NCBI GenBank assembly: GCA_048940445.1
Contig: JBHLON010000001.1
Location: 83,386 to 147,385, forward strand
Direction: 5' to 3'
DNA: 64,000 bases
From: Promethearchaeota archaeon
GTDB lineage: Archaea > Asgardarchaeota > Lokiarchaeia > Sigyniarchaeales > SOKP01
Positions 30,899 through 64,000 of the stretch are shown piece after piece. Numbering within the stretch: the stretch's first letter is position 1; each line of letters opens with the position of its first letter. A model generated the notes under the pieces. That model worked only from the letters and a program-made list of their open reading frames with translations, was not told where the DNA came from and did no database searches. The position numbers and the translations under genes were made by a program.

Positions 30899-30989
30899 TG
30901 CGTCGTCCGGGATTTGAACCCGGGTCCCGCGCGTTCTGCTTTCAATTAGAAAATGGCAGGCGCGGATTCTACCACTATACTAACGACGC
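30899..30989 (-). tRNA. tRNA-Gly (anticodon GCC) with a canonical 37/38 intron (~20 nt)
   Basis: The reverse complement gives acceptor GCGTCGT/ACGACGC, D-arm GTAT-AGTGGTA-GAAT, and anticodon stem CGCGC/GCGCG with loop CTGCCA[intron]C. The T-arm is CCGGG-TTCAAAT-CCCGG and the discriminator is A. Intron 'GCAG' can pair with 'CTGC' of the anticodon loop. Confidence 0.85.
30934..30953 (-). other. Canonical-position intron of tRNA-Gly(GCC)
   Basis: 20 nt 'TTTTCTAATTGAAAGCAGAA' (tRNA-sense) lie between A37 and C38. Removing them yields a 71-nt tRNA. Confidence 0.7.
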
Positions 30990-45138: not shown

Positions 45139-46275
45139 TTAAATTAAACTTTCCTTTACCACTTCATGGTGACAAAAGTTAATTGATTGCATTTCCTTAG
45201 TATATAGCCTAATATCTTTTAAAACTTTAACATAAGAAGCTAGTATAACTAAATTCTCATTTTGTCCCTTTAATTGAACATTTTCTTCAAGAAGACAATT
45301 ATCAGAAATTATTGACTTTTCAATCTTAACTTTTTTTGAGATATAAGATTCATTGTATATTAATGTTTCTTTGATTTGGGTTTCTTTATCTATATAAACA
45401 TTATCACCGATAATTACATTCGGACCTATAACACAATTTCCTCTAATAATAACTTTTTTTCCTATTACACAGGGATGAATGATTTTAGTAGTTGGATCAA
45501 TATCAACAGAATCATCAATTAATGATTTCCTTTTTTCATTTAGATTATGTAAAATATCGTTCATTAACAAGATACTTCCTTGATATAAATCATATGGCTT
45601 TCCAATATCTTTCCATATACCTGTAATAGGAAAGTGAAATAATTTATTCTCAGCAGCTAATTTATGAAATATGTCTCTCTCCATTGAAAGTTTTTTATTT
45701 GGTTCAATGTAGGAGAATATTTCTGGTTCTAAAATATAGAGCCCTGCATTGATAGGTATTGGAGTATATTTACCGTTAGGAGGAAAATACTCTTCTTTTT
45801 CAAGAAACTTTTTAAGCTGATTAGTTTCTGGATTAATTATCAGAACTCCATAAGGAGAGGGATCATCGACGATTTTGCTAGCTATTGTACCTCTTGCTTG
45901 AGATTTTTCATGAAATTCAAGCATATCTTTAAAATTAAAATTTAAAATGATATCTCCATTTAACATAAAGAAATTCTCATCTTTCAGATAAGATTCCGCT
46001 AACTTGATTGCCCCTGCTGTTCCCATAGGATATTTTTCATTTGTGTAATGAATTTTTACTCCAAACTTACTTCCATCTTTAAAGTAATTTTGTACTACTT
46101 CAGACATTACACTTACAGCCAATATTATTTCTTTAACACCTGCGGATTTCAAGAGTAAAATCTGTCTTTCAATAACAGGTTTATTAACAATAGGTATCAA
46201 GGATTTAGGAATAGTGCAAGTTAAAGGTCGTAACCTTGTTCCCCAACCACCAGATAAAATTATCCCTTTAGTCAT
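45139..46275 (-). CDS. Sugar-1-phosphate nucleotidyltransferase with a C-terminal hexapeptide-repeat domain
   Basis: 'GIILSGGWGTRLRPLTCTIPKSLIPIVNKPVIE', with LbH-like repeats in the C-terminal third. Confidence 0.8.
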   Translation of the reverse strand: MTKGIILSGGWGTRLRPLTCTIPKSLIPIVNKPVIERQILLLKSAGVKEIILAVSVMSEVVQNYFKDGSKFGVKIHYTNEKYPMGTAGAIKLAESYLKDENFFMLNGDIILNFNFKDMLEFHEKSQARGTIASKIVDDPSPYGVLIINPETNQLKKFLEKEEYFPPNGKYTPIPINAGLYILEPEIFSYIEPNKKLSMERDIFHKLAAENKLFHFPITGIWKDIGKPYDLYQGSILLMNDILHNLNEKRKSLIDDSVDIDPTTKIIHPCVIGKKVIIRGNCVIGPNVIIGDNVYIDKETQIKETLIYNESYISKKVKIEKSIISDNCLLEENVQLKGQNENLVILASYVKVLKDIRLYTKEMQSINFCHHEVVKESLI

Positions 46276-47776: not shown

Positions 47777-49558
47777 TTATTTTTTATATAATGGATCCGC
47801 TTCTTGAAGTAGCCTTCTTTGAACTTTTCCCATTACACTTTTAGGAATTTCGTCAATAAATTCTATATATTTAGGTATTTTCCAGTGTGTCATATTTTCT
47901 TCTGCCCATTTTAGGAGATCTTGTTCAGAGATTTTTCCAATATAACCTGATTTTAATGCAATCCATGCTTTGGTTATTTCTCCAACTTTTCCCTCAGGAT
48001 CCGGTAATCCAGCAACTGCAGCTTCAGAGACAGCCTCGTGCTTCATAAGCATTGTTTCTATTTCAGTGGGAAATACAGAATGACCAGCAACTTTAATTAG
48101 TTGCTTTTTTCTATCCATTAATGTAATAGTTCCATCTTCTCGCATATATCCAATATCACCTGTTCTTAACCAAATTCTACCATCCCATTGTTGTAAAGTC
48201 TGTTTAGTTTCTTCTGGCTGATTCAAGTATTCTTTCATTACCTGAGGACCATAAATACATACTTCTCCTGTATAATGTTCTCCATATTTCGAACCAGGGA
48301 GTCCATCAGCTATAGGTCCATTATTTAATGTTGGTGCATTTGCATCAAAAATACTCCAATCTGTTCCTGGTAAAGGCATACCAATTGTTCCTATTGGAGA
48401 TTCTCCGAATAGGTTACCAGCACTAACAATGGGGCTTGCTTCTGATAACCCATACCCTTCTACAATTCTTCCTCCGGTCTTTTTCTCAAATGCATCCCTT
48501 ATAGGAGCATGAAGTGGACCAGCTCCAGAGACATTTAGTTTCATTTTTCCCATCAAATGAGAGAATTTATTTAAATATGGATAATCTGTTATTCGTTTAA
48601 ATAGTATCTCTGCTGCAGCATAAGCAAGACCTTGAGGGGCTGGTAATTTATCTATAGTTTTAAGTAAATCTTCTGTAGAAGGGGGTCTAGCAAAAAGCAT
48701 CATCCATCCTCCAAGACCAATTGCTACATGCATTACAGCAGTCATAGCAAAGGAATGAAATAAGGGTAAAACACCTATATCTCCTATACCCGGCTGTTCT
48801 CCTCCAAAAATTTCAACTACTTGTCTAACATTAGATACTAAATTGAAATGAGTTAAAACTGTAGCTTTGGGTACCCCAGTAGTTCCACCCGTCATTATAT
48901 AAGTTGCAGTATGAGTCGAGGGATCAAAACTAACTTGTGGAACATTTGAGGGTGTATTTAAAAGATCCAAAAATTTATGTGAGGGAATAAAATCAACTTT
49001 TCCAGAAGGTAATTTTCCTAACATTTTTCCTAAAATCTTTTTAAGACCCTTAAATCCAGATGCTAAGTCAATAATATTGGTATATATAACTAATTCAACG
49101 TCTGTCTTTTCAATGATAGGTGCCGCTAGATCTTTATATAATGAATCTAAAACAATTAATACTTTTGCTTTAGTTAATTCGAGATGATGACGTACTTCTA
49201 GAGGTTTATACGTAGGATTTATCCCAGTAGAAATTACTCCCAACTTAGCACATGCGTAGAAAGCAATAATATATTGAAAACAATTCGGTAACAACAATGC
49301 TACTACGTCATTTTTAGTTATACCTAAATTGTGAAGAGCTGTTGCAAAAGAATCAATGTAATTTCCTGCTTCATCATAAGTCATCCAAGTATCTAAGAAC
49401 CACATTACATTATAGTCAGAATATTTCTTCCTTTGTCTTTCAAAAAATTCTCCAAGGCTAATATTTTCGAAATCAGTATTAAAAGGGACTCCTTCAGGCC
49501 ACCAACTATGAAACCAACTCTTTTCCTCGTTAATATGAAATTTTTTCATAAATAACAC
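47777..49558 (-). CDS. Long-chain/medium-chain fatty acid-CoA ligase (AMP-dependent synthetase family)
   Basis: 'TGGTTGVPKATVLTH', 'EGYGLSE', 'TGDIGYMREDG' and C-terminal 'GKVQRR'. Confidence 0.9.
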   Translation of the reverse strand: MLFMKKFHINEEKSWFHSWWPEGVPFNTDFENISLGEFFERQRKKYSDYNVMWFLDTWMTYDEAGNYIDSFATALHNLGITKNDVVALLLPNCFQYIIAFYACAKLGVISTGINPTYKPLEVRHHLELTKAKVLIVLDSLYKDLAAPIIEKTDVELVIYTNIIDLASGFKGLKKILGKMLGKLPSGKVDFIPSHKFLDLLNTPSNVPQVSFDPSTHTATYIMTGGTTGVPKATVLTHFNLVSNVRQVVEIFGGEQPGIGDIGVLPLFHSFAMTAVMHVAIGLGGWMMLFARPPSTEDLLKTIDKLPAPQGLAYAAAEILFKRITDYPYLNKFSHLMGKMKLNVSGAGPLHAPIRDAFEKKTGGRIVEGYGLSEASPIVSAGNLFGESPIGTIGMPLPGTDWSIFDANAPTLNNGPIADGLPGSKYGEHYTGEVCIYGPQVMKEYLNQPEETKQTLQQWDGRIWLRTGDIGYMREDGTITLMDRKKQLIKVAGHSVFPTEIETMLMKHEAVSEAAVAGLPDPEGKVGEITKAWIALKSGYIGKISEQDLLKWAEENMTHWKIPKYIEFIDEIPKSVMGKVQRRLLQEADPLYKK

Positions 49559-49676: not shown

Positions 49677-50783
49677 TTAAATATCATCTGTCACTTTCTT
49701 TGAAAAGTAAAATACTCCTGGTTCAATCCCTCTTCTTTCAGCTATTTTATAGAATAATAGTTGAATAATAATTATTTCTAATATTGGTGCTAAGTGGTTA
49801 TCCATAACATTATGTTTATAGACTAGCACTTTAGGATTATTGTGTATTGCTTCAAGTTCTTCATTAAAGTTTTGATTTGTTATATGCAGAAGTTTTTTGC
49901 ATTTCCATTTGTTTATAAGGTGCTCCAAAAATGTTTTACTCAACAGTAGATTTTTCTCATCAGCAGTGATTAAGATTATTATTGTATTGTCATTAAGGCA
50001 TTCAATCCCTCCATGACGGAATATTGATATTGAAGTAGCTTCAGAATAGATTTTTGTTATCTCCTTACAGTTTAAAGCTGCTTGATGAGCTGTAACCATT
50101 GAGGATCCCCGTGAGATAATTTCAATAAAGTTCATATCATATCCAACAAAATTCACTAAATTATTCCAAATTTTATTGATTAAATCATTTAGAAGGATAG
50201 TAATCTCTTCAATTAAGAGATCGATATGTTCATGCTCTTTTCCATTTATGAAGAATTCACCAGTTATTGTTTTTGCCATTACATAGAGTAATAATAAAGT
50301 ACAAACATAGCTTTTCGAGGTCACAGAAGTTTCCTCATCAAAATTCATTAAAATTTGTAATTCTGTCATTGAAGCAAGATAACTATTAGGATTATTTGTA
50401 ATGCCTATAGTGAGAGGTGTATCCTCAATTGAGTTAATTTTTCTTAATAACTCTCTAATTTCACCTGATTCTCCAGATTGAGAGATAATCACGATTCCAG
50501 TGTTCTTAAATATGTCTTGCTTTCTTTCTGGGAATAGATTAAAGAGAAATTCTCCAGAGTCTCTAATTTCTGTTGTTATTCCATATTGATTTAAAATATA
50601 GTAAGGTAAATAGGTACTGATAAAACTACTACCCATACCAGTGAAAATTAACTTGGTTATACCCCCTTTTTTAATAAAGTCCTTCACGATCAAAAATTGA
50701 GCCTTCCCTTCGTTTAAGACATAATTTAAAGTATCTCTTAACGCTTGAGGTTGAGATTTAATCTCTGCTAAAAACTGATTCAT
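49677..50783 (-). CDS. Double SIS-domain sugar-phosphate isomerase/deaminase (GlmS C-terminal / AgaS-like)
   Basis: 'FTGMGSSF' and 'IIISQSGESGE' in the first SIS domain, followed by a second SIS-like half. There is no glutaminase domain. Confidence 0.75.
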   Translation of the reverse strand: MNQFLAEIKSQPQALRDTLNYVLNEGKAQFLIVKDFIKKGGITKLIFTGMGSSFISTYLPYYILNQYGITTEIRDSGEFLFNLFPERKQDIFKNTGIVIISQSGESGEIRELLRKINSIEDTPLTIGITNNPNSYLASMTELQILMNFDEETSVTSKSYVCTLLLLYVMAKTITGEFFINGKEHEHIDLLIEEITILLNDLINKIWNNLVNFVGYDMNFIEIISRGSSMVTAHQAALNCKEITKIYSEATSISIFRHGGIECLNDNTIIILITADEKNLLLSKTFLEHLINKWKCKKLLHITNQNFNEELEAIHNNPKVLVYKHNVMDNHLAPILEIIIIQLLFYKIAERRGIEPGVFYFSKKVTDDI

Positions 50784-52122: not shown

Positions 52123-52854
52123 TTGTCAATTGGGATTATCTTTGATATATTTATAATGTTATTTTGCAATGATTATACATATTTGGGCAGAGTATTATTT
52201 TCCACGGGTATATTTATTGGGCCTACTTGCACTATTTTTGGAATTTCTTTCTTATTGCCTAGTAAGCACTCTGTTAGGATCTATTGGGTTATTATTGGAT
52301 GTTTGATTGGTGCAGGTTCGATATATTTGGGTACTTACTTCTTAGTTAATTCATTTTTCAAAATACCTCAATATGCTTACTCTATCTTACCTTATCTTTT
52401 GTACATTATACCATATATTCTTCTAGTAGGGGGAACACTTTTAATTATAGGTGCTCCATTAAATTTTGCAAGAAATTCGAAGAAGATAAGGAAATTGGAC
52501 TCATTGTCTCAAGCAGATTTAGTTAATTTGTTCAGCTGTCCCAAATGTGGAACAATTGGTGCTATTTACTTTGTAAAGCCTGTTAAAGATCAACTTTTAG
52601 TAAAACAAAAATGTCCCTATCATGGAGGAAGACTTTTTAAACTCCCAATAAGATTAAAAGATGATTCAATTTCCCACTTCCAGGATGCTATATTTCGTTG
52701 TCTTAAATGTGGACAAAGGGCTACATCTTTTCACGTAAAATATTCATTACCTTGGGCTTTAATTACAGTAGATTGCCCAACCCATGGATTGAAAACCTAT
52801 AAAATATGGTACACTGTCTACAGTGAAATTTCTGAAGGGATAATTGAGCGTTAG
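52123..52854 (+). CDS. Membrane protein with a cytoplasmic duplicated zinc-ribbon module
   Basis: There are four N-terminal TM helices. These are followed by 'CPKCG-x21-CPYHG' and 'CLKCG-x21-CPTHG', which look like an internal duplication. Confidence 0.5.
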   Translation: MSIGIIFDIFIMLFCNDYTYLGRVLFSTGIFIGPTCTIFGISFLLPSKHSVRIYWVIIGCLIGAGSIYLGTYFLVNSFFKIPQYAYSILPYLLYIIPYILLVGGTLLIIGAPLNFARNSKKIRKLDSLSQADLVNLFSCPKCGTIGAIYFVKPVKDQLLVKQKCPYHGGRLFKLPIRLKDDSISHFQDAIFRCLKCGQRATSFHVKYSLPWALITVDCPTHGLKTYKIWYTVYSEISEGIIER

Positions 52855-52916: not shown

Positions 52917-53672
52917 CTACTTTACTAACTGTTTTAACATGACAAATTCAGCTTTTTTAGATAGAGTTTCCCTTATAAAACTTTTAAATCGATATAAGAA
53001 CATATCTCCCGTATTAATCCATCTATCAGGTCTAAAAAGAGCGTTTTTCAAAATATCTGAAAGTTCGATTTGATTAAACAATAATGATCTCATCTCTATT
53101 GCCTCCCAAGGGTGCACGTATAATACTAATAACTCTTTTTTATATATCCACTTACGTAAAGGAGAATAACTCAAGGGTAATCTAAAAATTATATTTAAAT
53201 TTGGATGGAATTCTTGAATTTCTCCATTAATTCCATGAGAATTTTTTAGTATATGGATTGAATTATGATTTATTGAAGAATCATATTTAAATCCCTGATT
53301 CTTTAAAATAATAAATAAATAATTTGGAACCTTTAAATAAGGAGCTCTAAAACCTATAATTTCTGAACTTTGAGAGACTTTTTCAAGAATCTTTTTGTTT
53401 TGAGTTATTATTTCTTCACATTCTTCAAAATCCAACTTGGTTAGTCTCTCGTGATTTAAACCATGACACGCAATCTCATGTCCTTGACGAATAATTAACT
53501 TTATATATTTTGGCAAACGATTAGCGATATTTCCAGTACAAAAGAAAGTTCCTTTAATATTGAAATCATCTAAAATCTTAAGTATTTTTACCAAACCGAA
53601 TTCTATCCCAAAAGATGTATCCAAAACATTAGGTATATCCCGTTCAATATCAAAAGTTAAAGCAATTTTCAT
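52917..53672 (-). CDS. Polysaccharide deacetylase (CE4 / NodB-fold)
   Basis: 'ALTFDIERD', 'ACHGLNHE' and 'FRAPYL' correspond to NodB motifs 1-3. Confidence 0.8.
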   Translation of the reverse strand: MKIALTFDIERDIPNVLDTSFGIEFGLVKILKILDDFNIKGTFFCTGNIANRLPKYIKLIIRQGHEIACHGLNHERLTKLDFEECEEIITQNKKILEKVSQSSEIIGFRAPYLKVPNYLFIILKNQGFKYDSSINHNSIHILKNSHGINGEIQEFHPNLNIIFRLPLSYSPLRKWIYKKELLVLYVHPWEAIEMRSLLFNQIELSDILKNALFRPDRWINTGDMFLYRFKSFIRETLSKKAEFVMLKQLVK

Positions 53673-53723
53673 TATTGTAATCTTTTATAGTAATTTTAGC
53701 TTAAATTATTCTGTTTATTTAAA

Positions 53724-54491
53724 TTATTCAATTTTCTTAGCTAAATCATGATAAATGTCTTTATTGGAATAATATTGGTGAACTCGTCTAAGGCTTCGTT
53801 TTACAGTTAAATTACGACCACTAGTTAATACAGAAATGAACGTCAATGTTTTAATTTTTCCTTTCTTCAATTTACGAATTAAATATATCAGAGAATCCGA
53901 AAAAACTTTATCAATTCCTAAAGAATATGGTGGTTGTTTAAATCCACCCGATTTAAAGAAAACATCTCTTCTAACAATCATATTAGTTCCAGATAATTCA
54001 GGATATCCAAATAAACTTTTACAAAAATAGTATAAATGGCTCCCGAGATTTTGAAAAAAGTATTTAGTTATTGTGTATTTTGGGGTTCCGATATTAAATG
54101 AAAAGGCAATCCCGTCATAATATTTTATCCGAGCACTGCAAGCAAAAAGATTTTTATTTTTGTTAAAGATATGATATATTTTTTGTAAAAAGTAGGGGCC
54201 TATTAGTGTATCAGCATCTAAAAACAACAAGATATCTCCAGATGTTTTCTGTGCAGCATAATTTAACTGATGAGTCTTTCCTTTTTTAGGTGATACAAAT
54301 ACTTTTGCAAAATTTTTAGCAATTAAAACTGTTTTATCAGTACTTTGTCCATCACTTACGATAATTTCATAAGGAAAATTACAAATTTGTTTTTCAACAG
54401 CTAACAAAGTTTCTTTTATTAATTTTTCCTCATTATAAGCCGGGATCACTACTGATATTTTGGGATTATGCAACTGGTTAATTGCCTTCAT
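53724..54491 (-). CDS. Family 2 glycosyltransferase
   Basis: 'ISVVIPAYNEE' and 'LFLDADT' (DxD). Confidence 0.85.
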   Translation of the reverse strand: MKAINQLHNPKISVVIPAYNEEKLIKETLLAVEKQICNFPYEIIVSDGQSTDKTVLIAKNFAKVFVSPKKGKTHQLNYAAQKTSGDILLFLDADTLIGPYFLQKIYHIFNKNKNLFACSARIKYYDGIAFSFNIGTPKYTITKYFFQNLGSHLYYFCKSLFGYPELSGTNMIVRRDVFFKSGGFKQPPYSLGIDKVFSDSLIYLIRKLKKGKIKTLTFISVLTSGRNLTVKRSLRRVHQYYSNKDIYHDLAKKIE

Positions 54492-54594
54492 TTTATTTTA
54501 TATAAAGTAGAATGATTATTATACTTTAATTCATTCATTTGAGAATATATGATTTTGCAATATTTAATATGAATTTAATTTTAAAATTTGAGTA

Positions 54595-55689
54595 GTGACA
54601 AAAATGAAAAAAGCATTTATAATACCCTTTCTTTTTCTTATCTTTAGTTCTACACTTCTCATTTTATTCATATTGTCACGTTTGTTTTTCTCAATTCCTT
54701 GGATTAACATCCTATATGACTTTATAAGACCTTGGATGGCTCTGATTTTTTACAAATATAATATATATATCTATGGTGGAATTGTAATCTGTTTTGTTGC
54801 TTTATTACCTTTATTTGTTTTAGGATATAATATAGCAAAGTCTAATCAATTACTTGGTTCAATTATATATATTTTTAGTTTATTGGGTTATGTAGTAATT
54901 ATCTTATTAGCTTCCTTATTCACATATTTCAGTATTCTATTCAATGAACAACTAACAATCAATACTAGATTAATGCTATTTCTCCTTTTTTTACCAGTAA
55001 ATTTTACGATAACTCTAATTCTTTTTTTAGTAAACATCGATTTCTACCTTTTTTTAAAGGATTTGATGAAGGCTAGAAAAGTTTGGAAACATAAAAAACC
55101 TGAGTTTGAGGTCGTCGAGAAAGGTAAAATGACTTATATTAACATTGAAACCGATGAATTTATTTTTACTCCTGTACCAATGTTAATAATCGCAAAACAT
55201 CTTCAGCAAAAGCGATATTCTATTGCTTGGTTTGTAAAGGGAGCATTTAATCATTTATTTTCACTTGTTATTTCATACTTAATTGGGTGGCCGACAGCCA
55301 GAAATATGTTATTTCGCTTCTTAGGAATGAAAATAGGTAAAAATTGCCATATTTCGCAAAAAGCTATACCTGATCCCTTATTACCAGATTTAATTGAATT
55401 TGAAGACGGGAGTGGGTGTGGGATTGGTGTAAAGTTGTTGACTCATAATGCAATGAATATTAAACATGGAAGCTTCAGTTTTGGACCTATCAAAGTCTGT
55501 AAAAATGCGAGAATAGGAGCATATTCTATTATTCTCCCCGGTGTCACAATTGGTGAAGGATCTATTATAGGGGCTCATTCTGTTGTTGCAGAAGATATTC
55601 CACCATATAGCATCGCATTGGGATCTCCAGCGAAGGTTATCAGGGAATTAACAGAAGCCGAAAGAGAGGAAGTAAATAAGAACTATTGA
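54595..55689 (+). CDS. Membrane-anchored hexapeptide-repeat O-acetyltransferase
   Basis: The N-terminal ~160 aa are TM helices. The C-terminus has LbH repeats 'VCKNARIGAYSIILPGVTIGEGSIIGAHSVVAEDIPPYSIALGSPAKVI'. Confidence 0.8.
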   Translation: MTKMKKAFIIPFLFLIFSSTLLILFILSRLFFSIPWINILYDFIRPWMALIFYKYNIYIYGGIVICFVALLPLFVLGYNIAKSNQLLGSIIYIFSLLGYVVIILLASLFTYFSILFNEQLTINTRLMLFLLFLPVNFTITLILFLVNIDFYLFLKDLMKARKVWKHKKPEFEVVEKGKMTYINIETDEFIFTPVPMLIIAKHLQQKRYSIAWFVKGAFNHLFSLVISYLIGWPTARNMLFRFLGMKIGKNCHISQKAIPDPLLPDLIEFEDGSGCGIGVKLLTHNAMNIKHGSFSFGPIKVCKNARIGAYSIILPGVTIGEGSIIGAHSVVAEDIPPYSIALGSPAKVIRELTEAEREEVNKNY

Positions 55690-55690
55690 A

Positions 55691-56473
55691 TTATTTCTCA
55701 ATAAACTTTTCAATTAATTCATTTATCTCTTTATGATTGTCAACCATGACTCTATGCGTTCCATTATCAATAACAATCATTTCTGAATTCGGGATTAAAT
55801 CCTTTAAATTATTAAGCATTGATTTGTCAATAATTTTGTCTTTATTTCCGTAGATTATAAGAGTTGATTGATGAACTATTAAGTTTTTATTATATAAATG
55901 ATATTTTCTTGTCATATTTTTAAATGTACTTAAAACTATTGATTTGGGTAATTTTAGGGCATTTAAGTACAGTTTTTTAAACTCAGTATTATCATTTGTA
56001 TTCGAAACTATTTGGTGAACAATAGATTTTAAAAATTTTTTATAGAGGATTTTAAAAATTAAATTTACCAAAAAGAGTATTATTTTATCTTTATAAGATG
56101 ACGTGAATGAAGCACTTGTACTAATTAAAATTAATTTTTTTACTAAATCCTTATTTTTTATGGCAATATTTAATGCAATCATTCCCCCTAAAGAATGGCC
56201 TACTAGTATAACTTCATTATATCCTATAATTTTAAGAAATTCTAAAATTTGATTTGAAAAGAACTCTATAGAGTATTTGGTATTTGGTTTACTTGATTTA
56301 CCAAAACCGGGTAAATCTAATATAATAATATGTCTTTTGGAATTAAAATAGCATATTTGATAAATCCATTCATTTGAACTTCCTAACCAACCATGTATAA
56401 ATAAAATGGGAATACCTTGAATAGTATTTTCAGAATAAAAAATTTTTAAATTAGTAATACTAACAAATGGCAT
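55691..56473 (-). CDS. Alpha/beta-fold hydrolase
   Basis: 'ILFIHGW' and the nucleophile elbow 'VGHSLGG'. Confidence 0.8.
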   Translation of the reverse strand: MPFVSITNLKIFYSENTIQGIPILFIHGWLGSSNEWIYQICYFNSKRHIIILDLPGFGKSSKPNTKYSIEFFSNQILEFLKIIGYNEVILVGHSLGGMIALNIAIKNKDLVKKLILISTSASFTSSYKDKIILFLVNLIFKILYKKFLKSIVHQIVSNTNDNTEFKKLYLNALKLPKSIVLSTFKNMTRKYHLYNKNLIVHQSTLIIYGNKDKIIDKSMLNNLKDLIPNSEMIVIDNGTHRVMVDNHKEINELIEKFIEK

Positions 56474-56486
56474 TATTGTTTAACTT

Positions 56487-57518
56487 TTATTTTAATATAT
56501 TTTGATAGATAAAATTTCTAATAGGATGTTTAACAAAATTAGAAGGATTCCAATAACAAGGTTTAAAACAGTTGCAGTAATCAAATTTAAACGCTTTGAC
56601 TGTTTTGACTCGTTTCTTATGATGTAATGTAATAAAATCATTAAATTGAATATTAGTATTTACATCTTCACAGAGCATTACGGAACCATCATTATCTATT
56701 GAGTAATATAAATCTCCAGCATCGCAATTCCAATAGCTTCCTTTTTGATACCATTTATTCATGTAATAATAATAGATATTCGGGGAGAAAATTTGGATAC
56801 CTAATCTTTTGAGATTTTGAATTGTTTTCCTTAATCTCTCCATTTGTTCTTTCTTTAACAATAAATCAGGACAATAATTTCTATATTGATATTCTTCAGA
56901 GGGCTTTAATGATGAGTGAACAGGATCTATTGAAAATCGACAATCTATTTTTGAATTGATAATTTTTATTAGAGGAATAAGCCTTTGTATATTCTTTTTA
57001 GTAGGTACAATATGAATGCAATAATCAATATTATCAGGATACTTCCTTTTTATGTTATGAAGTAATTCAAATAATTCTGGACGATATCTTTTCGGACTAA
57101 AACTTGTTTCTCTTAAATCATCAATACTAATTCCTAAAAGGAAGTAACCATATGACGCAAATTCTTCAAGTAAAGGTTCAGATAATAAAGTACCATTAGT
57201 AACTACATGAGTGAATGTATTTAAATTTATACAATATTTCAAAAGTTCCCCTAAGTCTGATCTAAGGGTGGGTTCTCCTCCATATATTGTAATAAACCTG
57301 CATCCTTGATTATAAATTTGATTTATTATTCTCTTCCATTGATTTAACGATATATCTGCTTTTTGATTTCTTTTTGAAGCAGCACAATAATTACAATCAA
57401 GGTTACACTTCCTAGTAAAAAATAGGCTAACGAATACAGGTCCTTTTATTATTCTAAAAATTCTCTTTAAATAACTGACTCCAACTTTTCTTAAAATGGT
57501 GTTTTTTTTATTTGTCAT
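56487..57518 (-). CDS. Radical SAM enzyme with a C-terminal Cys-rich (SPASM/twitch-like) extension
   Basis: 'CNLDCNYC' cluster and 'ITIYGGEPTL'. C-terminal cysteines: 'WNCDAG...MLCED...DYCNCFKPC'. Confidence 0.75.
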   Translation of the reverse strand: MTNKKNTILRKVGVSYLKRIFRIIKGPVFVSLFFTRKCNLDCNYCAASKRNQKADISLNQWKRIINQIYNQGCRFITIYGGEPTLRSDLGELLKYCINLNTFTHVVTNGTLLSEPLLEEFASYGYFLLGISIDDLRETSFSPKRYRPELFELLHNIKRKYPDNIDYCIHIVPTKKNIQRLIPLIKIINSKIDCRFSIDPVHSSLKPSEEYQYRNYCPDLLLKKEQMERLRKTIQNLKRLGIQIFSPNIYYYYMNKWYQKGSYWNCDAGDLYYSIDNDGSVMLCEDVNTNIQFNDFITLHHKKRVKTVKAFKFDYCNCFKPCYWNPSNFVKHPIRNFIYQNILK

Positions 57519-57573
57519 CTTTAAATTTTCTTAATCGAATGATTAAAATAAGTAAATATACTAAAAAATATTA

Positions 57574-58563
57574 ATGACTCAAGTTTTGCAACCAGTGTCC
57601 ATTGTTGTTCCTATAAAAAATAGGGGTAATTTTCTTCCCAGTTTAATTAAAAATCTCCAAGATTTAAATTATCCAAAATATGAGATCATTATTGTTGATG
57701 ATGGATCAACAGATAATACAAAAGATTTATTAAAAAAGTCTCAGATCAAATCAATTTTACTAACAAAATCGGTTGGATCTGCGGAAGCAAGAAATCTAGG
57801 GATTAGGCAAGCAAAATACAAAGTTATCGCTCTTACAGACTCAGATTGTTTTGTATCAAGAAATTGGTTAAGAAACTTAGTTCCATTTTTAAATAAGTAT
57901 GATATAGTTGGGGGTAAGGTCTTATTTTGCGATAAATCTGAACGAAAATTAAATCCATTTAGTCAAAATGATGAGGTAATCATACGTAAAGATTCAAATA
58001 TTAATTTTCTTAATACAAGTAATATGTTATTAAAAAAAGATGTTTGGAACTTAGCAGGTGGATTCCTAAGTTATAGAATTGAAGATTTAGAATTTTCCTG
58101 GAGATCTATAAAAAAAGGATTTAAATTAATCTACGTTCCAAAGGGCTTAGTAATTCATTATGGAAAAAGAAATCCTCTTCAAAATATTAAAAAATATTTT
58201 CATTATGGGAAAGCTTATTCAGAAATTGTATCAATCCATAAGATGGAATTTATATTTAAATCAGAGCCTATTTTTAATTCTAAATCAATTAGAGACTATA
58301 TTCCAATAATAATCTATTCAAATGTCGTATTCTTAGTGTTTTTTATAAGTGGTTTTTTCCTTTTTAATAAGATATTTGGATTTTCATTTTTAAACGTTGC
58401 ATCCTTTCTTTTTGTTTATTTATTTTTTCGATTCATAATAAAAGTTGATGTAATTTACAAATTATATAAATTTAGTATCACATTTAGCATAATATTATAT
58501 ACTCTAATCTATATGCTAAAAAATAAGAAAAAAAGAAGACAGTTTAATAAAGCCAATCAATAA
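57574..58563 (+). CDS. Family 2 glycosyltransferase with C-terminal TM helices
   Basis: 'VSIVVPIKNR', 'IIIVDDGSTDNT' and 'ALTDSDC'. The C-terminal ~90 aa are hydrophobic. Confidence 0.85.
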   Translation: MTQVLQPVSIVVPIKNRGNFLPSLIKNLQDLNYPKYEIIIVDDGSTDNTKDLLKKSQIKSILLTKSVGSAEARNLGIRQAKYKVIALTDSDCFVSRNWLRNLVPFLNKYDIVGGKVLFCDKSERKLNPFSQNDEVIIRKDSNINFLNTSNMLLKKDVWNLAGGFLSYRIEDLEFSWRSIKKGFKLIYVPKGLVIHYGKRNPLQNIKKYFHYGKAYSEIVSIHKMEFIFKSEPIFNSKSIRDYIPIIIYSNVVFLVFFISGFFLFNKIFGFSFLNVASFLFVYLFFRFIIKVDVIYKLYKFSITFSIILYTLIYMLKNKKKRRQFNKANQ

Positions 58564-59854
58564 TAGAGGAACAACTTTTACCTTGTACGTTTTTTAATCG
58601 TCCAATGATTCTAAAAGTGGCACCTTCATACCCACATTCTGGACAATTCTTTTTTGAAATAAGTTCTACAATATCATCGACTAGAACCGCTTGATTAATG
58701 CTTCCATTCACACCATATGGCGTAATTACTTCTAGAAGGCCCTCCATTCCATCATTAACTGGTTCTAGACTTTCTATATCTCTTACTATAATCCTAGATG
58801 TATCTGGACAATGTAATATGAAATCTTGATATTTTTCAGACCAATGCCCTCCAAAAAGTGTAGGTCCTTCAGTGAATGCATAAATATCAGCTATATCCTT
58901 TGGCTTGATATTAAAAACCTTTTCATAATTTTGAATAAACCTAAGTTTATCAACAGCATTTAATTTTGCCTCCCCTTTAACTCCATCCCATCCTCCTCCA
59001 CCACAACCAACGAAGGACATACCATCAAGATCATAAAAAATATTTTCCTTCAATAATCTATTCTCAAACATATTATTCATTAATAGAGGACTCCCACCAA
59101 ATAATAATTTGCATACTTCAGTATTTTTCCATTGATTTGTTTTCACAATTTTTTTTATTATTTTTAACATTCTGCTTACATCTACGATGAAACCACCTTT
59201 CATTGAAAGAGTTGACAGAATCGCCCAGATTGTTTTTAAAAATTTGGCTTTTACCATATATTCCTCAAAACCATAGTATTCCCATGGTTTATTCATACAC
59301 GCCGTAAAGTAGCGTGTCTTTTTAACATATTCAAACCCTTTAACATTTTTTCTTGCCATCATTGCCATTAAGAAACGTCCAGGTGCAAAGTTAAAGATAA
59401 CGCTCTTCTTATTTTCTGTTCTTAAATCTTTCCACCTGAAAAATTCATTAAATACTTTAATTGAATTATATTGGATTTGATCGAAATCTTCTAGTGTACG
59501 AGGGACTATAGAAGGATCTCCTGAAGTAGAAGAAGAACATGAAAAAAGAACTATATCATCTAGAGGTACTTTTAGCAGGTTTAGAGTTCGGTTCTCACTT
59601 TTTTTATATAAATCTGAAGGGATATAGGGAATATTATCCAGATTATTACTATTTATTTCATCAGGAATGGAAAAGTCGAACTTTTTACACAGATCTTCTC
59701 GATAATACCTACAGTTACTATAAGAGAATTTTATTTGTTCTAAAACATCATTATAAAATGTCTTATCCGAATATTGATGCAATTCTGAATCAAAATATTT
59801 TCTCTTCAGTTCTTTGGGTAAATAATCATGTACTTTATATTTCAAGAAAATCAC
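58544..59854 (-). CDS. LuxE-like acyl-protein synthetase / adenylate-forming enzyme
   Basis: The N-terminal 'IPYIPSDLYKK' then 'FSCSSSTSGDPSIV' resemble the LuxE/PaaK-type 'SSGTTGxPS' region. There is a C-terminal 'CPECGYEG' zinc knuckle. Assignment is at family level only. Confidence 0.45.
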   Translation of the reverse strand: MIFLKYKVHDYLPKELKRKYFDSELHQYSDKTFYNDVLEQIKFSYSNCRYYREDLCKKFDFSIPDEINSNNLDNIPYIPSDLYKKSENRTLNLLKVPLDDIVLFSCSSSTSGDPSIVPRTLEDFDQIQYNSIKVFNEFFRWKDLRTENKKSVIFNFAPGRFLMAMMARKNVKGFEYVKKTRYFTACMNKPWEYYGFEEYMVKAKFLKTIWAILSTLSMKGGFIVDVSRMLKIIKKIVKTNQWKNTEVCKLLFGGSPLLMNNMFENRLLKENIFYDLDGMSFVGCGGGGWDGVKGEAKLNAVDKLRFIQNYEKVFNIKPKDIADIYAFTEGPTLFGGHWSEKYQDFILHCPDTSRIIVRDIESLEPVNDGMEGLLEVITPYGVNGSINQAVLVDDIVELISKKNCPECGYEGATFRIIGRLKNVQGKSCSSIIDWLY

Positions 59855-59963
59855 ATTATATAAAAAAACCAGTCTAGTTGGTTTTTTAATTGATTATAAT
59901 AATTTTAGTCTATTTTTATATATATTCCCTCTTAACTAAAATAAAAAGAAAAAAGAAAAAGTT

Positions 59964-61316
59964 TTATTTTGTAGATAAAGCTATTATTTCAGCTTCTTGT
60001 TTTTCAAATAACATAGGAGTTTTTTCCCAACTTAATTCCTTTGGAAGTTTAAATTGACGTAAAAACATGTATAAATGAATATAACCACTAATTAGAAAGA
60101 CTAGCAAAACACTGTAATGTTTATCGCCATACTTTCTAATAGCATTGAATAGATAGCCAAACATAAAAAGTAGACAAGAAGTACTCCAAATTAGTAAATA
60201 ATATTCCCCAATTAGAAAGAAAAGGACCATAAATCCAATGACTATAGGAATCCAAGTATCTATATTCCCTATTAACATCATTGTCATATTTCTCGCGATA
60301 ATTAAAGATTTGCCATTTTTATGCTCGCTTTTCATTGCCATCAACTGAGGCATATCAAAAATAAACCCTGCAAGCCATCTTGTACGTTGTTGAGTTAATA
60401 TTTCCCATGTACTTGGTACATATTCGTAAATTTTAGCTTTAGGAGAAAAGAGTATTTTAACTCCGTCTAAGTTTAAAAGTACAGATAAATAAAGATCTTC
60501 AGTCATAGAATCTTCATTAAAACCTCCATATTTCCTTAAAAATTTAGTTCTAACAGCAAAATTTCTTCCGAATGAATAAGCTGAAGACCCCAACCGATTT
60601 TTAATTTCAAAAAGCAAACCTCCACCCGAAACCATAGCATAATCAAGAAGAATTCCTCGGGTTAAATTATTTTCTTTCCAATTTTTAACTAACACTGGTC
60701 CTATAACCGCATTATTGTTATCATTTTGAAATGGTGAAATCAAATCTTTTAGGGTATCTGGTTCTAAAATACAGCCTGAGTCATAAAGTAGAACGATATC
60801 GTGTTTGACATATTTTAAACCATAATTCAAAGCTGGAGGTTTACCCTTCTTTGCTAAGCTATCTGATAACACCTCAATATCTATCATATTGTATGTCATA
60901 GCAAACTTTTGACAAAACTCTGTTGTATCGTCTGTAGAACCACTTGTGATTATGATTATTTGGATATTTTCTTTTGGATAATTTGAATTAACAATAGATG
61001 TTAATGTTCTTTCCAGAAGGATTCGCTCACTTTTAGAGGCAATCATTATGCTTATTTTTGGATAATAAGTTGTTTTAGTCTTATAACCACTTCCAAATGA
61101 GGCTAAAAAGTGAATTCCATAATAAAGAAGCAAGCCCCATATCATTACAAGCCCTATTAAAGGAAATATAAACCACCAATAAGTTAAAGGATCAGTAAAG
61201 AAGGCATTAATAGAATCTCTTACGCCTGAAGTCCAGAAAGATGGAAAGTATATATGGAAAATAACATATAAAACTACCAAAAAGAACCCATATAATATGA
61301 TTTTTGACATTTTCAT
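59964..61316 (-). CDS. Processive family 2 glycosyltransferase (cellulose/chitin/PNAG-synthase-like; TED and QxxRW motifs)
   Basis: N- and C-terminal TM bundles flank a GT2 core with 'ISIMIASKSE', 'LLYDSGC', 'MTEDLYLS' and 'QQRTRWLAG'. Confidence 0.85.
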   Translation of the reverse strand: MKMSKIILYGFFLVVLYVIFHIYFPSFWTSGVRDSINAFFTDPLTYWWFIFPLIGLVMIWGLLLYYGIHFLASFGSGYKTKTTYYPKISIMIASKSERILLERTLTSIVNSNYPKENIQIIIITSGSTDDTTEFCQKFAMTYNMIDIEVLSDSLAKKGKPPALNYGLKYVKHDIVLLYDSGCILEPDTLKDLISPFQNDNNNAVIGPVLVKNWKENNLTRGILLDYAMVSGGGLLFEIKNRLGSSAYSFGRNFAVRTKFLRKYGGFNEDSMTEDLYLSVLLNLDGVKILFSPKAKIYEYVPSTWEILTQQRTRWLAGFIFDMPQLMAMKSEHKNGKSLIIARNMTMMLIGNIDTWIPIVIGFMVLFFLIGEYYLLIWSTSCLLFMFGYLFNAIRKYGDKHYSVLLVFLISGYIHLYMFLRQFKLPKELSWEKTPMLFEKQEAEIIALSTK

Positions 61317-61337
61317 TGAGAATCACGTTTTTATTTT

Positions 61338-62288
61338 TTATTTTAATACTCCATTTTTTTTATCCATTTCCTTTAATCCTTTATAGATGTATCGCCCAAA
61401 TGGTATTACTGATATGACCATAATTATAAATAAACTAATTTGAAAAATAAACATTGTCCATGTAGTTATCCATGTATGAACCGATGCCCATATTGTTGTA
61501 CTAGAGGGATTGATTAAATATGTAATCAACATAGTTAGACTTGAGACTCCATACATTGCAAAAAATGTAGCAGTTACCAAAAATCGAGTAATTCTTTCAC
61601 CTATAAAGGGCTTTGTTTCCTTCATTCCTAAACCTTCATGTCTCGCTCTCATATATTCATAAATAAAAATAAGGAATATATTTGTCCATACTATCCATCT
61701 AAAATTAAGACCATAAGCATTTATAATCATATAATTGGCGGGAATTAAGCATACAAACATAAGTATATCACAAATTCGATCAATTACATTATCTAACCAA
61801 GCACCTCGTTTTGATTTAATGTTTAGTAAACGAGCTATAGCCCCATCAATTCCATCAATAATACCCGTAAAAAGTACCAATATTGCCAAAGGAAGAAACC
61901 ATGCACCATAAAAAGGTTGTTCAGAGAATAAGTTAACACCAGGTAAAGTCCCGTCCCCAAGCATAACAACACAATAAAAGATTAGGAAGGATAAAATTAA
62001 ATTCATAAAAGAAACTTTATTTGGAGTTAATCCCCACCTTATGAAGATCTTTGCCCCTCTATATGTTATTGGCATATAAATCTTTCCAGAAGGGTCTTTT
62101 TTCATTTTGGTAAAATAATCTTCTAACTTGTGAGCTGATCCATGATCTCTAATCCAATCTTTAATGAAGTCATCTAAACTCATAAATTCTTGATTTGGTT
62201 TCCTATTAGGAATTCCACTAATTAAAATAATTATAAGTAACAATATCAAAATTAATGGAAATATTACTTCGAAAATAATTTCTGTCAT
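61338..62288 (-). CDS. CDP-alcohol phosphatidyltransferase family protein
   Basis: 'DGIDGAIARLLNIKSKRGAWLDNVIDRICD' matches D-x2-DG-x2-AR-x8-G-x3-D-x3-D. The protein is polytopic. It lies 21 nt upstream of the processive GT2, on the same strand. Confidence 0.85.
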   Translation of the reverse strand: MTEIIFEVIFPLILILLLIIILISGIPNRKPNQEFMSLDDFIKDWIRDHGSAHKLEDYFTKMKKDPSGKIYMPITYRGAKIFIRWGLTPNKVSFMNLILSFLIFYCVVMLGDGTLPGVNLFSEQPFYGAWFLPLAILVLFTGIIDGIDGAIARLLNIKSKRGAWLDNVIDRICDILMFVCLIPANYMIINAYGLNFRWIVWTNIFLIFIYEYMRARHEGLGMKETKPFIGERITRFLVTATFFAMYGVSSLTMLITYLINPSSTTIWASVHTWITTWTMFIFQISLFIIMVISVIPFGRYIYKGLKEMDKKNGVLK

Positions 62289-62511: not shown

Positions 62512-64000
62512 ATGATTAAAACTGGAAATTGATGATAATCTAAAAAATAATACTTCTGTTGCTTATATATCAATGGAAATAGGTTTAGATTCTAATATCC
62601 CAACTTATAGTGGTGGTTTAGGAGTACTATCAGGAGATACAGTAAGATCTGCTGCTGATTTAGAGATCCCAATGGTAGCAGTTTGCCTATGTTACAGTTC
62701 AGGATACTTTTTTCAATTATTTAATGAAGCTGGTGAACAAAAGGAAAAAGAAGTCGAATGGAATTTTTTCTATGAATTTGATAAAGTTGAGAAACCCATT
62801 TCTGTTAAAATTGAGAATCGAGAAGTTAGGGTCTCTGCATGGCTTTACAAAGTCATTGGTCAATCAGGTCATGTTTTACCTGTCTATCTTCTTACAACTG
62901 ATGTTGAGGGAAATGAACCATGGATGAAAAAGATGACAGGATCTCTATACGATTCAACTTCGCGATGGAATCGCATTGTCCAAGAAATAATCCTTGGAAT
63001 TGGTGGTGTTCGCCTCCTAAACTCCCTAGGATATGAAAATATTAAAACTTATCATCTTAATGAGGGTCATGGAAGTTTTGCTTCAATTGAATTATATAAT
63101 ATGTATAAAGGGGACATTGAAAAGATTAAGTCAAGTGTTGTTTTTACTACTCATACACCTGTAGCTGCTGGACATGATAGATTTGATCAAAGTTTGGTAA
63201 CTAAAGTTTTTGAAAATAGAATTCCTGAACGAATTCGAAAGTTTGGTGAGGATAATGGGCAATTTAATATGACATTTTTGGGGATGAACCTCTCAAGATA
63301 TCGGAATGCAGTTTCAAGAAAACATGTTGAAATAACTAAACAAATGTTCCCAAAATATGAAATTGACTATATTACAAATGGAATTCATTTACCCTTCTGG
63401 GTATCAAAACCATTTAGAAAAATGTTTGATAGAAAGTTTCCTAATTGGAAGGCAAACCCATCTTTACTGCAAAATGCAATCGAGTTAGATGATCTAGATG
63501 TTTTCGATGCTCACATTAAAAATAAATTCAATCTTATTAGCTATCAAAAGGGCCATTCATGGAATTTATTAGATGAAGAATTAATAACAATCGGTTTTGC
63601 AAAAAGATTTGCTACTTATAAAAGAGGTACTTTAATTTTCCATGATATTGATAGATTAGGAAAAATCTGTAAGGGAAGTGTACAATTTATATTTGCAGGT
63701 AAGGCTCACCCTAAAGATGAAATGGGGAAGGATTATATCAAGAAAGTTTATGAATCAGGCAACTATTTGTATGATAACTATGGAGTTAAAGTCGTTTTAA
63801 TGGAGAATTATAATATGGATTTAGCACATATGTTAGTTTCAGGGTGTGATGTTTGGTTAAATACTCCTGAAAGATATCGTGAAGCAAGCGGTACTAGTGG
63901 CATGAAAGCAGCATTAAATGGTGTATTAAATTTCAGTATTCAAGATGGATGGTGGTTAGAAGGTTATAAAAAAAATGCTTTATCAGGATGGGCTATTGGG
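62512..64000 (+). CDS. glgP: Alpha-glucan (glycogen/maltodextrin) phosphorylase, 3'-truncated by the window edge
   Basis: I translated this manually; it is not in the ORF track because there is no stop in the window. Motifs: 'VAYISMEIGLDSNIPTYSGGLGVLSGD', 'HLNEGHGSF', 'FTTHTPVAAGHD' and the PLP-lysine region 'EASGTSGMKAALNG'. Confidence 0.9.

Follow-up and report, generated by a model that had tools for sequence, protein, structure and literature searches.

What kind of molecule would an Asgard archaeon assemble with a membrane glycosyltransferase, a polysaccharide deacetylase and a phospholipid-type transferase encoded in one block of genes? The question is raised by positions 52917-62288 of the stretch analysed here, 64,000 nucleotides of contig JBHLON010000001.1 from a Promethearchaeota archaeon (in the following, the window; G+C content ~29%). 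In this block nine tightly packed open reading frames (ORFs), which we call A to I in the order of their coordinates, are separated by intergenic gaps of at most ~110 bp and fall into transcription units, five in number (I-H-G, F, E-D, C and B-A). They encode a carbohydrate esterase family 4 (CE4) deacetylase (A), a small soluble family 2 glycosyltransferase (GT2; B), a membrane protein with a left-handed beta-helix (LbH) acyl- or acetyltransferase domain (C), an alpha/beta hydrolase (D), a radical SAM (rSAM) enzyme (E), a second GT2 with a hydrophobic tail (F), a LuxE-type enzyme (G), a large membrane GT2 (H) and a CDP-alcohol phosphatidyltransferase (I). The ORF calls and the Pfam assignments, all of which lie above the curated cut-offs, agree with the genes and domains that an earlier note on this DNA, made by a model from the letters and their translations, had listed for the block. 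None of the nine proteins reaches an NCBIfam equivalog cut-off, and hence no characterised family has a member among them.

The block is an uncharacterised, deeply conserved Asgard glycoconjugate locus centred on the GT2-phosphatidyltransferase pair formed by H and I. As to its product, we tentatively favour, at slightly less than an even chance, a lipid-anchored glycoconjugate, that is, a phospho-glycolipid, which would be tailored on the cytoplasmic side of the membrane. Searches of the literature turned up nothing of relevance on the cluster, on Asgard polar head groups or on LuxE proteins in archaeal glycolipids, and no paper among those found describes the combination of enzymes.

Conservation of the locus in Asgard archaea

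A motif-seeded scan of the GTDB species representatives with two exact motifs yielded 57 Asgard loci, in which the window proteins were scored against the six-frame ORFs within 10 kb on either side of H, on contigs of metagenome-assembled genomes (MAGs). I is present in 55 of the 57 loci, G in 47, B in 34, C in 33, A in 20, E in 18, F in 17 and D in 16, and each of five window genes just outside the block in zero to two, which places the block far beyond a chance neighbourhood. Wherever the contig leaves room for it (53/53 loci), the gene immediately upstream of H is I, in the same orientation and mostly with a gap of less than 100 bp. Of the 44 loci holding a G-family gene, 31 have G within 200 bp downstream of H, again in the same orientation. 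Gene-order maps resolve a core of I, H and G, a B-C pair and a D-E-F triad, with A mostly near B-C. C is found beside B in 32 of the 33 loci that have C, F adjoins E in all 17 of its loci, D, E and F are contiguous in all but one of the 17 loci with F, and D occurs in 16 loci, each time together with E and F. The view of the block as a functional unit, which had been put forward from the sequence, is thus upheld by co-conservation both in these loci and in the divergent Asgard clades described below.

A protein 100% identical to H (P0001) is assigned to a Promethearchaeota MAG, and the close homologues all bear the labels of Promethearchaeota or other Asgard MAGs, the best 120 matches being full-length proteins of ~450 amino acids with 56-95% identity. 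The G+C content of all 57 loci lies between 25 and 34%, and the submitters' labels include Thor-, Hermod-, Hod-, Odin- and Helarchaeota; given this uniform G+C content, the main clade is treated here as Lokiarchaeia-type and the labels are not relied on. Under the labels Thor-, Hermod-, Hod- and Odinarchaeota, the H proteins are 73-86% identical to that of the window and lie in loci of 27-34% G+C, and these labels may be unreliable or the contigs mis-binned. No cultured Asgard strain is among the matches, which, as the scan rested on two exact motifs, is not proof of absence. A family often found next to the I-H pair is presumably ribosomal protein L10e, as read from its sequence.

Beyond the main clade, a profile search of 1.8 billion representatives places H in a discrete clade (650 bits) with a few distant relatives (478-212 bits), followed by a plateau of generic PgaC-like GT2 proteins at ~120-150 bits. 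Three proteins, P0133, P0275 and P0276, are natural single-chain fusions with an H-like N-terminal and an I-like C-terminal part. The N-terminal part matches the entire H of the window at 31% identity, and the C-terminal part matches I at 25%, the distinctive soluble motif near the N-terminus of I included. The fusion gene of L062 (7881-9872) lies on a metagenome contig of 43% G+C, on which genes for C-, A-, B- and G-like proteins are found too, at 35-41% identity (C 38%, G 37% and B 41%; the A homologues of L062 and L064 35-39%, and B of L064 likewise 41%). In L066 and L067, unfused relatives of the fusion from an Asgard MAG, the order is C...A-B-H-I with flanking rSAM genes, the CE4 and Hexapep genes being present, and a B homologue lies immediately beside H in L066 and L067 as well as beside the fused H-I gene of L062. 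L064 has genes for a LuxE protein, H, an rSAM-SPASM protein (343 amino acids, 22% identical to E), B, a zinc-ribbon protein, I, a choline-kinase-like kinase and A. In the P0122-type clade (L068 and L069), which includes a Sigynarchaeum-labelled protein, an I-like gene abuts H and LuxE and Hexapep genes lie nearby, both of them in L068. The pairing of H with I hence recurs in three further lineages (L064, L066/L067 and L068/L069), and the set of A, B, C, G, H and I is still united in two divergent Asgard clades, at 25-41% identity and in one of them with H and I fused. The CE4 deacetylase, on which the earlier note had laid weight, proves to be part of this deeply conserved set (L062, L064, L066 and L067).

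The divergent loci also hold genes that are absent from the block. The kinase gene of L064 (6652-7812), of the APH/choline-kinase-like type, stands next to the I-like gene, and its product could phosphorylate an alcohol destined for activation with CDP. Both loci examined of the P0122-type clade contain a P-type cation ATPase of ~960 amino acids with a P2-like domain set inside the I/H/LuxE neighbourhood (L068, 5168-8065; L069, 8603-11488). L063 (10815-15558) has two tandem H-like GT2 genes with neither I nor G nearby; the same contig carries ThiF/E1-like, UQ_con/E2-like, ubiquitin-like, ESCRT-II and Vps4 genes, and these eukaryotic-signature genes confirm the Asgard origin of that divergent H clade. 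In the Lokiarchaeia-type loci, two families missing from the window recur inside or beside the cluster, namely UDP-galactopyranose mutase (Glf) in 17 loci and a sulfotransferase in 16 (L004, L011, L017, L018, L022, L024, L027-L030, L033, L035, L039 and L048-L055), which points to a product with galactofuranose and sulfate in some lineages.

The membrane glycosyltransferase H and its partner I

H (59964-61316, minus strand; Glyco_tranf_2_3, 107 bits) has 450 amino acids and carries the motifs MTEDLYL and QQRTRW between two bundles of transmembrane (TM) helices. It was placed by the NCBIfam and PDB profile scores of H and its 78 nearest representatives, used in place of a reference tree. The best NCBIfam match is PgaC_IcaA (TIGR03937), with 96.4 bits against a cut-off of 422.3, followed at a distance by NodC (39/550 bits), HpnI (39/310) and CelA (35/699), and the scores against AglJ, ArnC and other dolichol-phosphate-sugar synthase types are negligible. 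All 78 nearest representatives also match PgaC best, none of them near the cut-off (best E-value 6e-61). Against the PDB, the H profile finds PcManGT (1e-17), BcsA (3e-9) and ceramide glucosyltransferase (GCS; 4e-7). An AlphaFold2 model with a predicted local distance difference test score of 80 shows two TM helices at the N-terminus, the GT-A domain, a QRTRW-bearing interface helix, four C-terminal helices and a low-confidence loop at residues 430-437. With this model, Foldseek returns the hyaluronan synthase (HAS) XlHAS1 (1.5e-14), PcManGT (7.7e-14), BcsA (1.7e-12) and CvHAS, all between 1e-14 and 1e-11, at TM-scores of ~0.45-0.5 and a sequence identity of 14-16%; PcManGT, which does not polymerise, thereby scores on a par with HAS1 and BcsA. 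H belongs to the cellulose-synthase/HAS/PgaC-like branch of membrane-embedded GT2 proteins and not to the dolichol-phosphate-sugar synthases, as the sequence-based reading had anticipated; it is the core glycosyltransferase of the locus and possibly a translocase too.

TED (T272-D274) and QRTRW (310-314) are invariant in the H family. So is W-x-x-T-P (SWEKTP) in the loop 430-437, of which the tryptophan, usually as W-x-K-T, is kept in more than 90% of PgaC-like relatives; in the model, this predicted flexible loop takes the place of the gating loop of HAS and BcsA and may be its counterpart. H thus shares its predicted fold, the TED and QxxRW motifs and the position of a C-terminal loop motif with HAS, BcsA and PcManGT. 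It differs from them, apart from the low identity and TM-scores, in the DxD motif, which reads D-x-G (residues 179-181) in all 61 Lokiarchaeia-type H sequences (DSG in 49, DAG in seven and DCG in five). DxD is kept in 75 of the 78 nearest GT2 representatives and is DAE in the fused clade, and TED and QxxRW are unchanged in the D-x-G clade. Two or three tandem H paralogues, 50-59% identical to H of the window, follow I in Helarchaeota-labelled and related loci (L002, 8624-12723; L054; L057), and one of the copies in L057 lacks TED and reads GSEDGSK. Among distant matches of the fusion query, P0290 and P0293 (both 1146 amino acids) and P0294 combine a GT2 with CE4 (Polysacc_deac_1) and Chitin_synth_1 domains, and P0290 and P0293, not P0294, also with GH18, so that synthase and deacetylase, in these two with a chitinase, share one chain.

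The known products of CDP-alcohol phosphatidyltransferases are phospholipid head groups or phosphodiester polyols. I (61338-62288, minus strand; CDP-OH_P_transf, 48 bits) is a polytopic member of this family, in which the DGxxDGxxAR...GxxxDxxxD signature is intact; it has an additional TM helix at the N-terminus, followed by a soluble segment, and an inserted loop. In the signature, D145, D148, G149, A152, R153, G162 and D170 are invariant, and D166 is found in nine of ten sequences, the tenth having E. The best NCBIfam matches are archaetidylinositol phosphate synthase (AIPS), with 69.7 bits against a cut-off of 180, phosphatidylinositol phosphate synthase (PIPS), with 52 against 170 (models NF040950 and NF045883), and the Bacteroides PIP synthase, and the PgsA and PssA types match much more weakly. 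The family profile of I ranks RsPIPS (4e-14) and MtPgsA1 (1.7e-13) before AF2299 (2e-12), DIPP synthase (DIPPS; 4e-7) and CHPT1 (7e-5). An invariant Y212-x-R214-A-R216...G-E231-R232-x-x-R235 of I aligns with YxKAR...ERPxR of PIPS, and within it R232-x-x-R235 aligns with the RxxR of ERPER/ERSER in MtPIPS and RsPIPS. In PIPS, two arginines bind the phosphate of inositol phosphate, R153 and R191 in RsPIPS and R155 and R195 in MtPIPS, and the RxxR motif contains one of them, R153 or R155, respectively (PMC4634129). Judged by these profiles and alignments, I is a divergent relative of the head-group synthases that use inositol phosphate, and not a demonstrated member of their families.

Tailoring enzymes and neighbouring genes

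A (52917-53672, minus strand; Polysacc_deac_1, 71 bits) is closest to the DUF3473/PEP-CTERM-locus subtype of CE4 in NCBIfam (TIGR03006, 94 bits against 276; NodB, 58 against 240) and retains TFD(I)E, HxxxH and RxPY as catalytic motifs. A and all 20 Lokiarchaeia-type orthologues start with MKIALTFD(I/V)ERD, so that the catalytic motif begins at residue 6; no signal peptide or TM helix is found in these orthologues, and the divergent orthologues also have no hydrophobic N-terminus. De-N-acetylation hence takes place in the cytoplasm, where A cannot act on an exported polymer as PgaB and IcaB do. Cytoplasmic de-N-acetylation of small or lipid-linked intermediates is known from NodB, PIG-L, LpxC and MshB.

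G (58544-59854, minus strand) matches LuxE (PF04443) over residues 222-431 with 94.6 bits, against a cut-off of 24.9, and has weak matches to PaaK and FlxY as well. It contains a nucleotide motif, SSSTSGDP, and a C-terminal CPECG...GRL...GK(S/G)C(S/T)S, conserved in both types of G paralogue, and from these features it is assigned to the LuxE/PaaK-type adenylate-forming enzymes. LuxE carries its acyl group on a cysteine, which the cysteine of GK(S/G)C(S/T)S recalls, and no LuxC reductase or LuxD acyltransferase family is found in the block or among the recurrent neighbours. C (54595-55689, plus strand) consists of about four N-terminal TM helices followed by a Hexapep domain of the LbH acyl- or acetyltransferase type, which, from the positive-inside rule applied to the four helices and the basic stretch after them, is predicted to face the cytoplasm. 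In NCBIfam, C scores highest against heptaprenylglyceryl phosphate O-acetyltransferase (77 bits, cut-off 300), before galactoside, maltose and WcaF acetyltransferases. As A is signal-less, G depends on ATP and C on acetyl-CoA, the tailoring should sit on the cytoplasmic side, which is easier to reconcile with an intermediate that is lipid-linked or an oligosaccharide than with a polymer extruded co-translocationally.

B (53724-54491, minus strand; Pfam GT2, 100 bits) is closest to the rSAM-associated glycosyltransferases of TIGR04283 (92 bits against 182), and F (57574-58563, plus strand; Pfam GT2, 105 bits), with its hydrophobic C-terminal TM tail, to MftF-type glycosyltransferases (125 against 280); F probably adds a further sugar as a member of the optional D-E-F module. 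D (55691-56473, minus strand; Abhydrolase_1, 124 bits), with a GHSLGG nucleophile elbow, reaches no NCBIfam equivalog and by its sequence is a serine hydrolase or acyltransferase of the alpha/beta fold. E (56487-57518, minus strand; Radical_SAM, 82 bits) has a cysteine-rich C-terminus, which from the sequence is classed as SPASM/twitch-like; its best NCBIfam match is the PTO1314-family rSAM (72 bits against 306), the best matches are of the SPASM type, and in the PDB it is closest to SuiB-type proteins, viperin, SkfB and PqqE. A calditol- or HpnIJK-type cyclitol pathway, which likewise combines a GT2, a deacetylase and an rSAM enzyme, was considered and rejected, given the low HpnI score of H and an E that occurs in 18 of the 57 loci and is not of the B12 type. 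B12-binding rSAM genes of ~486 amino acids do occur in relatives, as two or three tandem copies directly downstream of H or G (for instance in L009, L015, L023, L038, L040, L043, L046 and L058), and further rSAM proteins of 455-530 amino acids flank the cluster in related loci. That these flanking enzymes form a tetraether synthase (Tes/GDGT-MAS) island for core lipids was also rejected; the three rSAM proteins of L066 (503-530 amino acids) match only 9ccb, RimO and MiaB-type structures and not 7TOL.

The block is bounded on one side by a possible accessory gene (52123-52854, plus strand), whose 243-amino-acid product combines some four TM helices with two zinc-ribbon-like CxxC...CxxH pairs at the C-terminus and is without a match in Pfam or NCBIfam. 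Homologues adjoin the cluster in L003 (66% identity) and L006 (75%) and lie within the distant L064 cluster (28%), and many loci have other TM plus zinc-ribbon proteins (families c8 and c11) as neighbours of I, H and G. At its opposite end, the block is separated by an AT-rich spacer of 285 bp from an alpha-glucan phosphorylase gene (62573-64000, plus strand), which runs past the end of the window. This gene, a leucine-rich-repeat protein gene (43773-45119, minus strand) and a gene for a long-chain-fatty-acid-CoA-ligase-like enzyme (47777-49558, minus strand; 341 bits, below the equivalog cut-off) show no synteny with the cluster in relatives. Three further window genes had been proposed to supply the pathway with UDP-GlcNAc. 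One of them, 9416-10726, does encode an archaeal GlmU (498 bits, cut-off 292); 45139-46275 encodes a sugar-1-phosphate nucleotidyltransferase below every equivalog cut-off, and the match of 49677-50783 to GlmS (110 bits) is confined to the C-terminal, double-SIS half. All three are syntenic with the block in none of the 57 related loci and are therefore treated as ordinary housekeeping genes and not as members of the pathway. The sole match at the Rfam gathering level in the window is a tRNA (30899-30989, minus strand), whose span of 91 nucleotides, longer than usual, may reflect an intron or a long variable arm.

What the locus may make

In the pathway that we infer from these data, including its substrates, the order of its steps, the length of the chain and the final location of the product, I would join CDP-archaeol and an anionic polyol, most likely inositol-1-phosphate or a similar compound, into a phospholipid anchor, or alternatively pass a phosphatidyl group to the glycan. 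H would glycosylate the head group at the inner leaflet, probably with an N-acetylhexosamine (HexNAc) residue, and may move the glycan across the membrane. B, and F where it is present, would add more sugars to the lipid-linked intermediate or supply them to it, and A would take the N-acetyl group off its HexNAc in the cytoplasm, before export. G would activate a carboxylate (acyl or aminoacyl) with ATP, so as to re-acylate or esterify the product, for example on the amine freed by A, C would O-acetylate or O-acylate the membrane-bound intermediate, and D and E would provide optional extra tailoring. A bolder version, which we regard as rather doubtful, is that Asgard archaea (the Lokiarchaeia-type clade and at least two further clades) make a new, conserved surface phospho-glycolipid of the acylated or acetylated (oligo)glucosaminyl-inositol-phosphate type, a functional parallel to GPI, PIM or Nod factors made with non-homologous enzymes, and that a HAS-like GT2, coupled or fused to the head-group synthase, would combine head-group synthesis, glycosylation and outward translocation in one machine.

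Support for a phospho-glycolipid comes from the adjacency of I and H in 53 of 53 loci, the recurrence of the pair in three divergent lineages and its natural fusions, from the joint retention of A, B, C, G, H and I on divergent Asgard contigs of 43% G+C, and from the cytoplasmic location of A, which G and C should share. The sequence matches of three proteins point the same way: I matches enzymes that use inositol phosphate best, with an RxxR that aligns with their inositol-phosphate motif, C matches an O-acetyltransferase acting on a lipid best, and the closest solved sequence relative of H is the small archaeal PcManGT and no polymer synthase. Two or three tandem H paralogues after I suit a stepwise addition of different sugars. 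H is 56-95% identical over more than 120 protein clusters and frequently has housekeeping neighbours, which suggests a core envelope function and not an accessory exopolysaccharide.

The logic of such a pathway can be found in several known systems. The best match is Nod factor synthesis (NodC, NodB, NodA, NodL and NodH), where a QxxRW GT2 makes a short HexNAc chain that is deacetylated by a cytoplasmic CE4 enzyme, re-acylated on the amine and O-acetylated by an LbH protein, and where a sulfation step has its parallel in the sulfotransferase of the related loci. In contrast to the Nod system, activation here falls to a LuxE-type enzyme, a phospholipid-type transferase is central, the NodC and NodB scores are far below their cut-offs (39/550 and 58/240 bits), and there is no NodA-like match among the nine block proteins. 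In the mycobacterial pgsA1-patA-pimA operon and in the synthesis of glycosylphosphatidylinositol (GPI) and of glucosaminyl-archaetidylinositol, a CDP-alcohol phosphatidyltransferase of the inositol-phosphate type is likewise clustered with a glycosyltransferase and acyl- or acetyltransferases. I is homologous to PgsA1 and AIPS and keeps the acceptor motif RxxR, and GPI synthesis follows the same order of GlcNAc transfer, cytoplasmic de-N-acetylation and acylation. However, the block employs an inverting GT2, a CE4 deacetylase and LuxE and LbH proteins, whereas phosphatidylinositol mannoside (PIM) and GPI synthesis rely on GT4 enzymes (PimA and PIG-A), LmbE/PIG-L and PatA/PIG-W, and I differs from AIPS by its extra N-terminal segment and inserted loop as well as by its score. 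The PgaABCD and IcaADBC systems share with the block a membrane GT2 with TED and QxxRW and a CE4 deacetylase in one locus. Their CE4 enzyme is periplasmic or extracellular, whereas here it is cytoplasmic and the obligatory partner of the GT2 is a CDP-alcohol phosphatidyltransferase; they also have no counterpart to the LuxE-type ligase, the LbH acetyltransferase with its TM helices, the extra GT2 proteins or the rSAM enzymes. On this comparison, the likeness to the Nod, PIM and GPI systems is one of logic only, with homology limited to that of I with PIPS and AIPS and to the distant relationships of H with NodC and of A with NodB.

Several observations weigh against a phospho-glycolipid. Searches of the literature brought up no lipid data for these organisms and no description of a product. 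I scores far below the AIPS cut-off (69.7 against 180 bits), and the second arginine that binds inositol phosphate in PIPS is not clearly conserved in I, where an insertion follows the RxxR, position S293+6 is variable and K or R is conserved at S293+10. The donor or acceptor of I could also be non-lipid, as in DIPPS or AF2299, and no inositol-1-phosphate synthase gene was called in the eight related loci that hold H and I and have Pfam-annotated genes. A considerable minority of the loci have no A, B, C or G gene in the 10 kb on either side of H. H and its clade are without the second aspartate of DxD, and the protein bears the hallmarks of a processive synthase, namely TED, QxxRW, the C-terminal WxKT loop, six TM helices with conserved polar residues and structural matches to HAS and BcsA.

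These hallmarks, together with the HAS/BcsA-like predicted fold and a poly-N-acetylglucosamine (PNAG) synthase as the nearest curated family, would be accommodated by a long polymer primed on a lipid, which we consider unlikely. I would make the primer and a processive H would extrude a membrane-anchored beta-linked HexNAc polymer, in the manner of lipoteichoic acid or of the PIM-based lipomannan and lipoarabinomannan, with A, G and C modifying only the primer or the growing non-reducing end. The adjacency and fusion of I and H fit a primer-polymerase pair equally well. However, the internal residues of an extruded chain would be out of reach for cytoplasmic tailoring enzymes, the tandem H paralogues and the GT2 proteins B and F suggest a defined hetero-oligosaccharide, and the small PcManGT as the closest solved sequence relative and the lack of a recurrent polymer-handling partner argue in the same direction. 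It is quite improbable that H makes a free, secreted exopolymer of the PNAG, chitin or chitosan type, partly de-N-acetylated by A and decorated by the products of the other genes, as the earlier note had proposed. Of that proposal, the branch of the membrane GT2 and the co-conservation of GT2 and CE4 in deep clades stand, H has PgaC_IcaA as its best NCBIfam match, A matches CE4 enzymes of the NodB/PgdA type, and natural fusions of GT2 and CE4 exist among distant GT2 proteins (P0290 and P0293). The logic of PgaC/PgaB and IcaA/IcaB is not supported. H is no equivalog of PgaC (96/422 bits), NodC or CelA, A has no signal peptide, and of the 57 Lokiarchaeia-type loci only 20 have a CE4 gene within 10 kb of H. 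No PgaA-, PgaD- or IcaD-like family is found among the conserved neighbours, which are zinc-ribbon membrane proteins, rSAM enzymes, Glf and the sulfotransferase, along with recurrent unclassified small TM proteins. The invariant partner of H, in some genomes fused to it, is a transferase of the phospholipid type and not the deacetylase, and we know of no role for a CDP-alcohol phosphatidyltransferase in the logic of PNAG or chitin synthesis.

Two further readings can be set beside these. In one, the locus would build a dolichol-phosphate-linked oligosaccharide for the N- or O-glycosylation of surface proteins. PcManGT, described by its depositors as a crenarchaeal mannosyltransferase, is presumably linked to N-glycan synthesis, and the presence of several GT2 proteins and an acetyltransferase, with Glf and a sulfotransferase in related loci, resembles archaeal agl clusters. 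Yet neither the oligosaccharyltransferase AglB nor a flippase gene was called in the nine related loci with Pfam-annotated genes, the matches of H to AglJ and ArnC-type dolichol-phosphate-sugar synthases are negligible, and a CDP-alcohol phosphatidyltransferase has no known role in the assembly of dolichol-linked glycans, all of which renders this reading very improbable. The least probable is a soluble small molecule, for which I would act like DIPPS or AF2299 on CDP-alcohols that are soluble and the other enzymes would make a glycoside resembling mycothiol or a compatible solute. In the mycothiol pathway, MshA-D act in the order glycosyltransferase, deacetylase, ATP-dependent ligase and acetyltransferase, an order mirrored by the glycosyltransferase, deacetylase, adenylating ligase and acetyltransferase of the block, and the profile of I also matches AF2299 and DIPPS. 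Against this, H, C, F and I are integral membrane proteins, the fold of H is that of membrane-embedded synthases, and the I profile scores the lipid-using PIPS above DIPPS.

To our knowledge, very little has been described of the polar lipids and the cell surface of Asgard archaea, and the composition of membrane and surface is central to models of syntrophy, of cell-cell contact and of the archaeal-to-eukaryotic membrane transition. The I-H cluster is among the more strongly conserved membrane-associated gene sets of Lokiarchaeia-type genomes. Its module map, with the core I-H-G, the B-C pair, the D-E-F triad and A, indicates which genes to express together, and even on a conservative reading the Rosetta-stone fusion of a GT2 with a CDP-alcohol phosphatidyltransferase and the D-x-G variant are leads for enzymology. 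If the product is a glycosyl-inositol phospholipid resembling GPI or PIM, or a lipid-anchored glucosamine glycan, it would be a specific lipid biomarker for these organisms. Such a product would also be a candidate for an adhesion or protective layer, and it would represent a convergent, GPI-like logic next to the eukaryotic stem.

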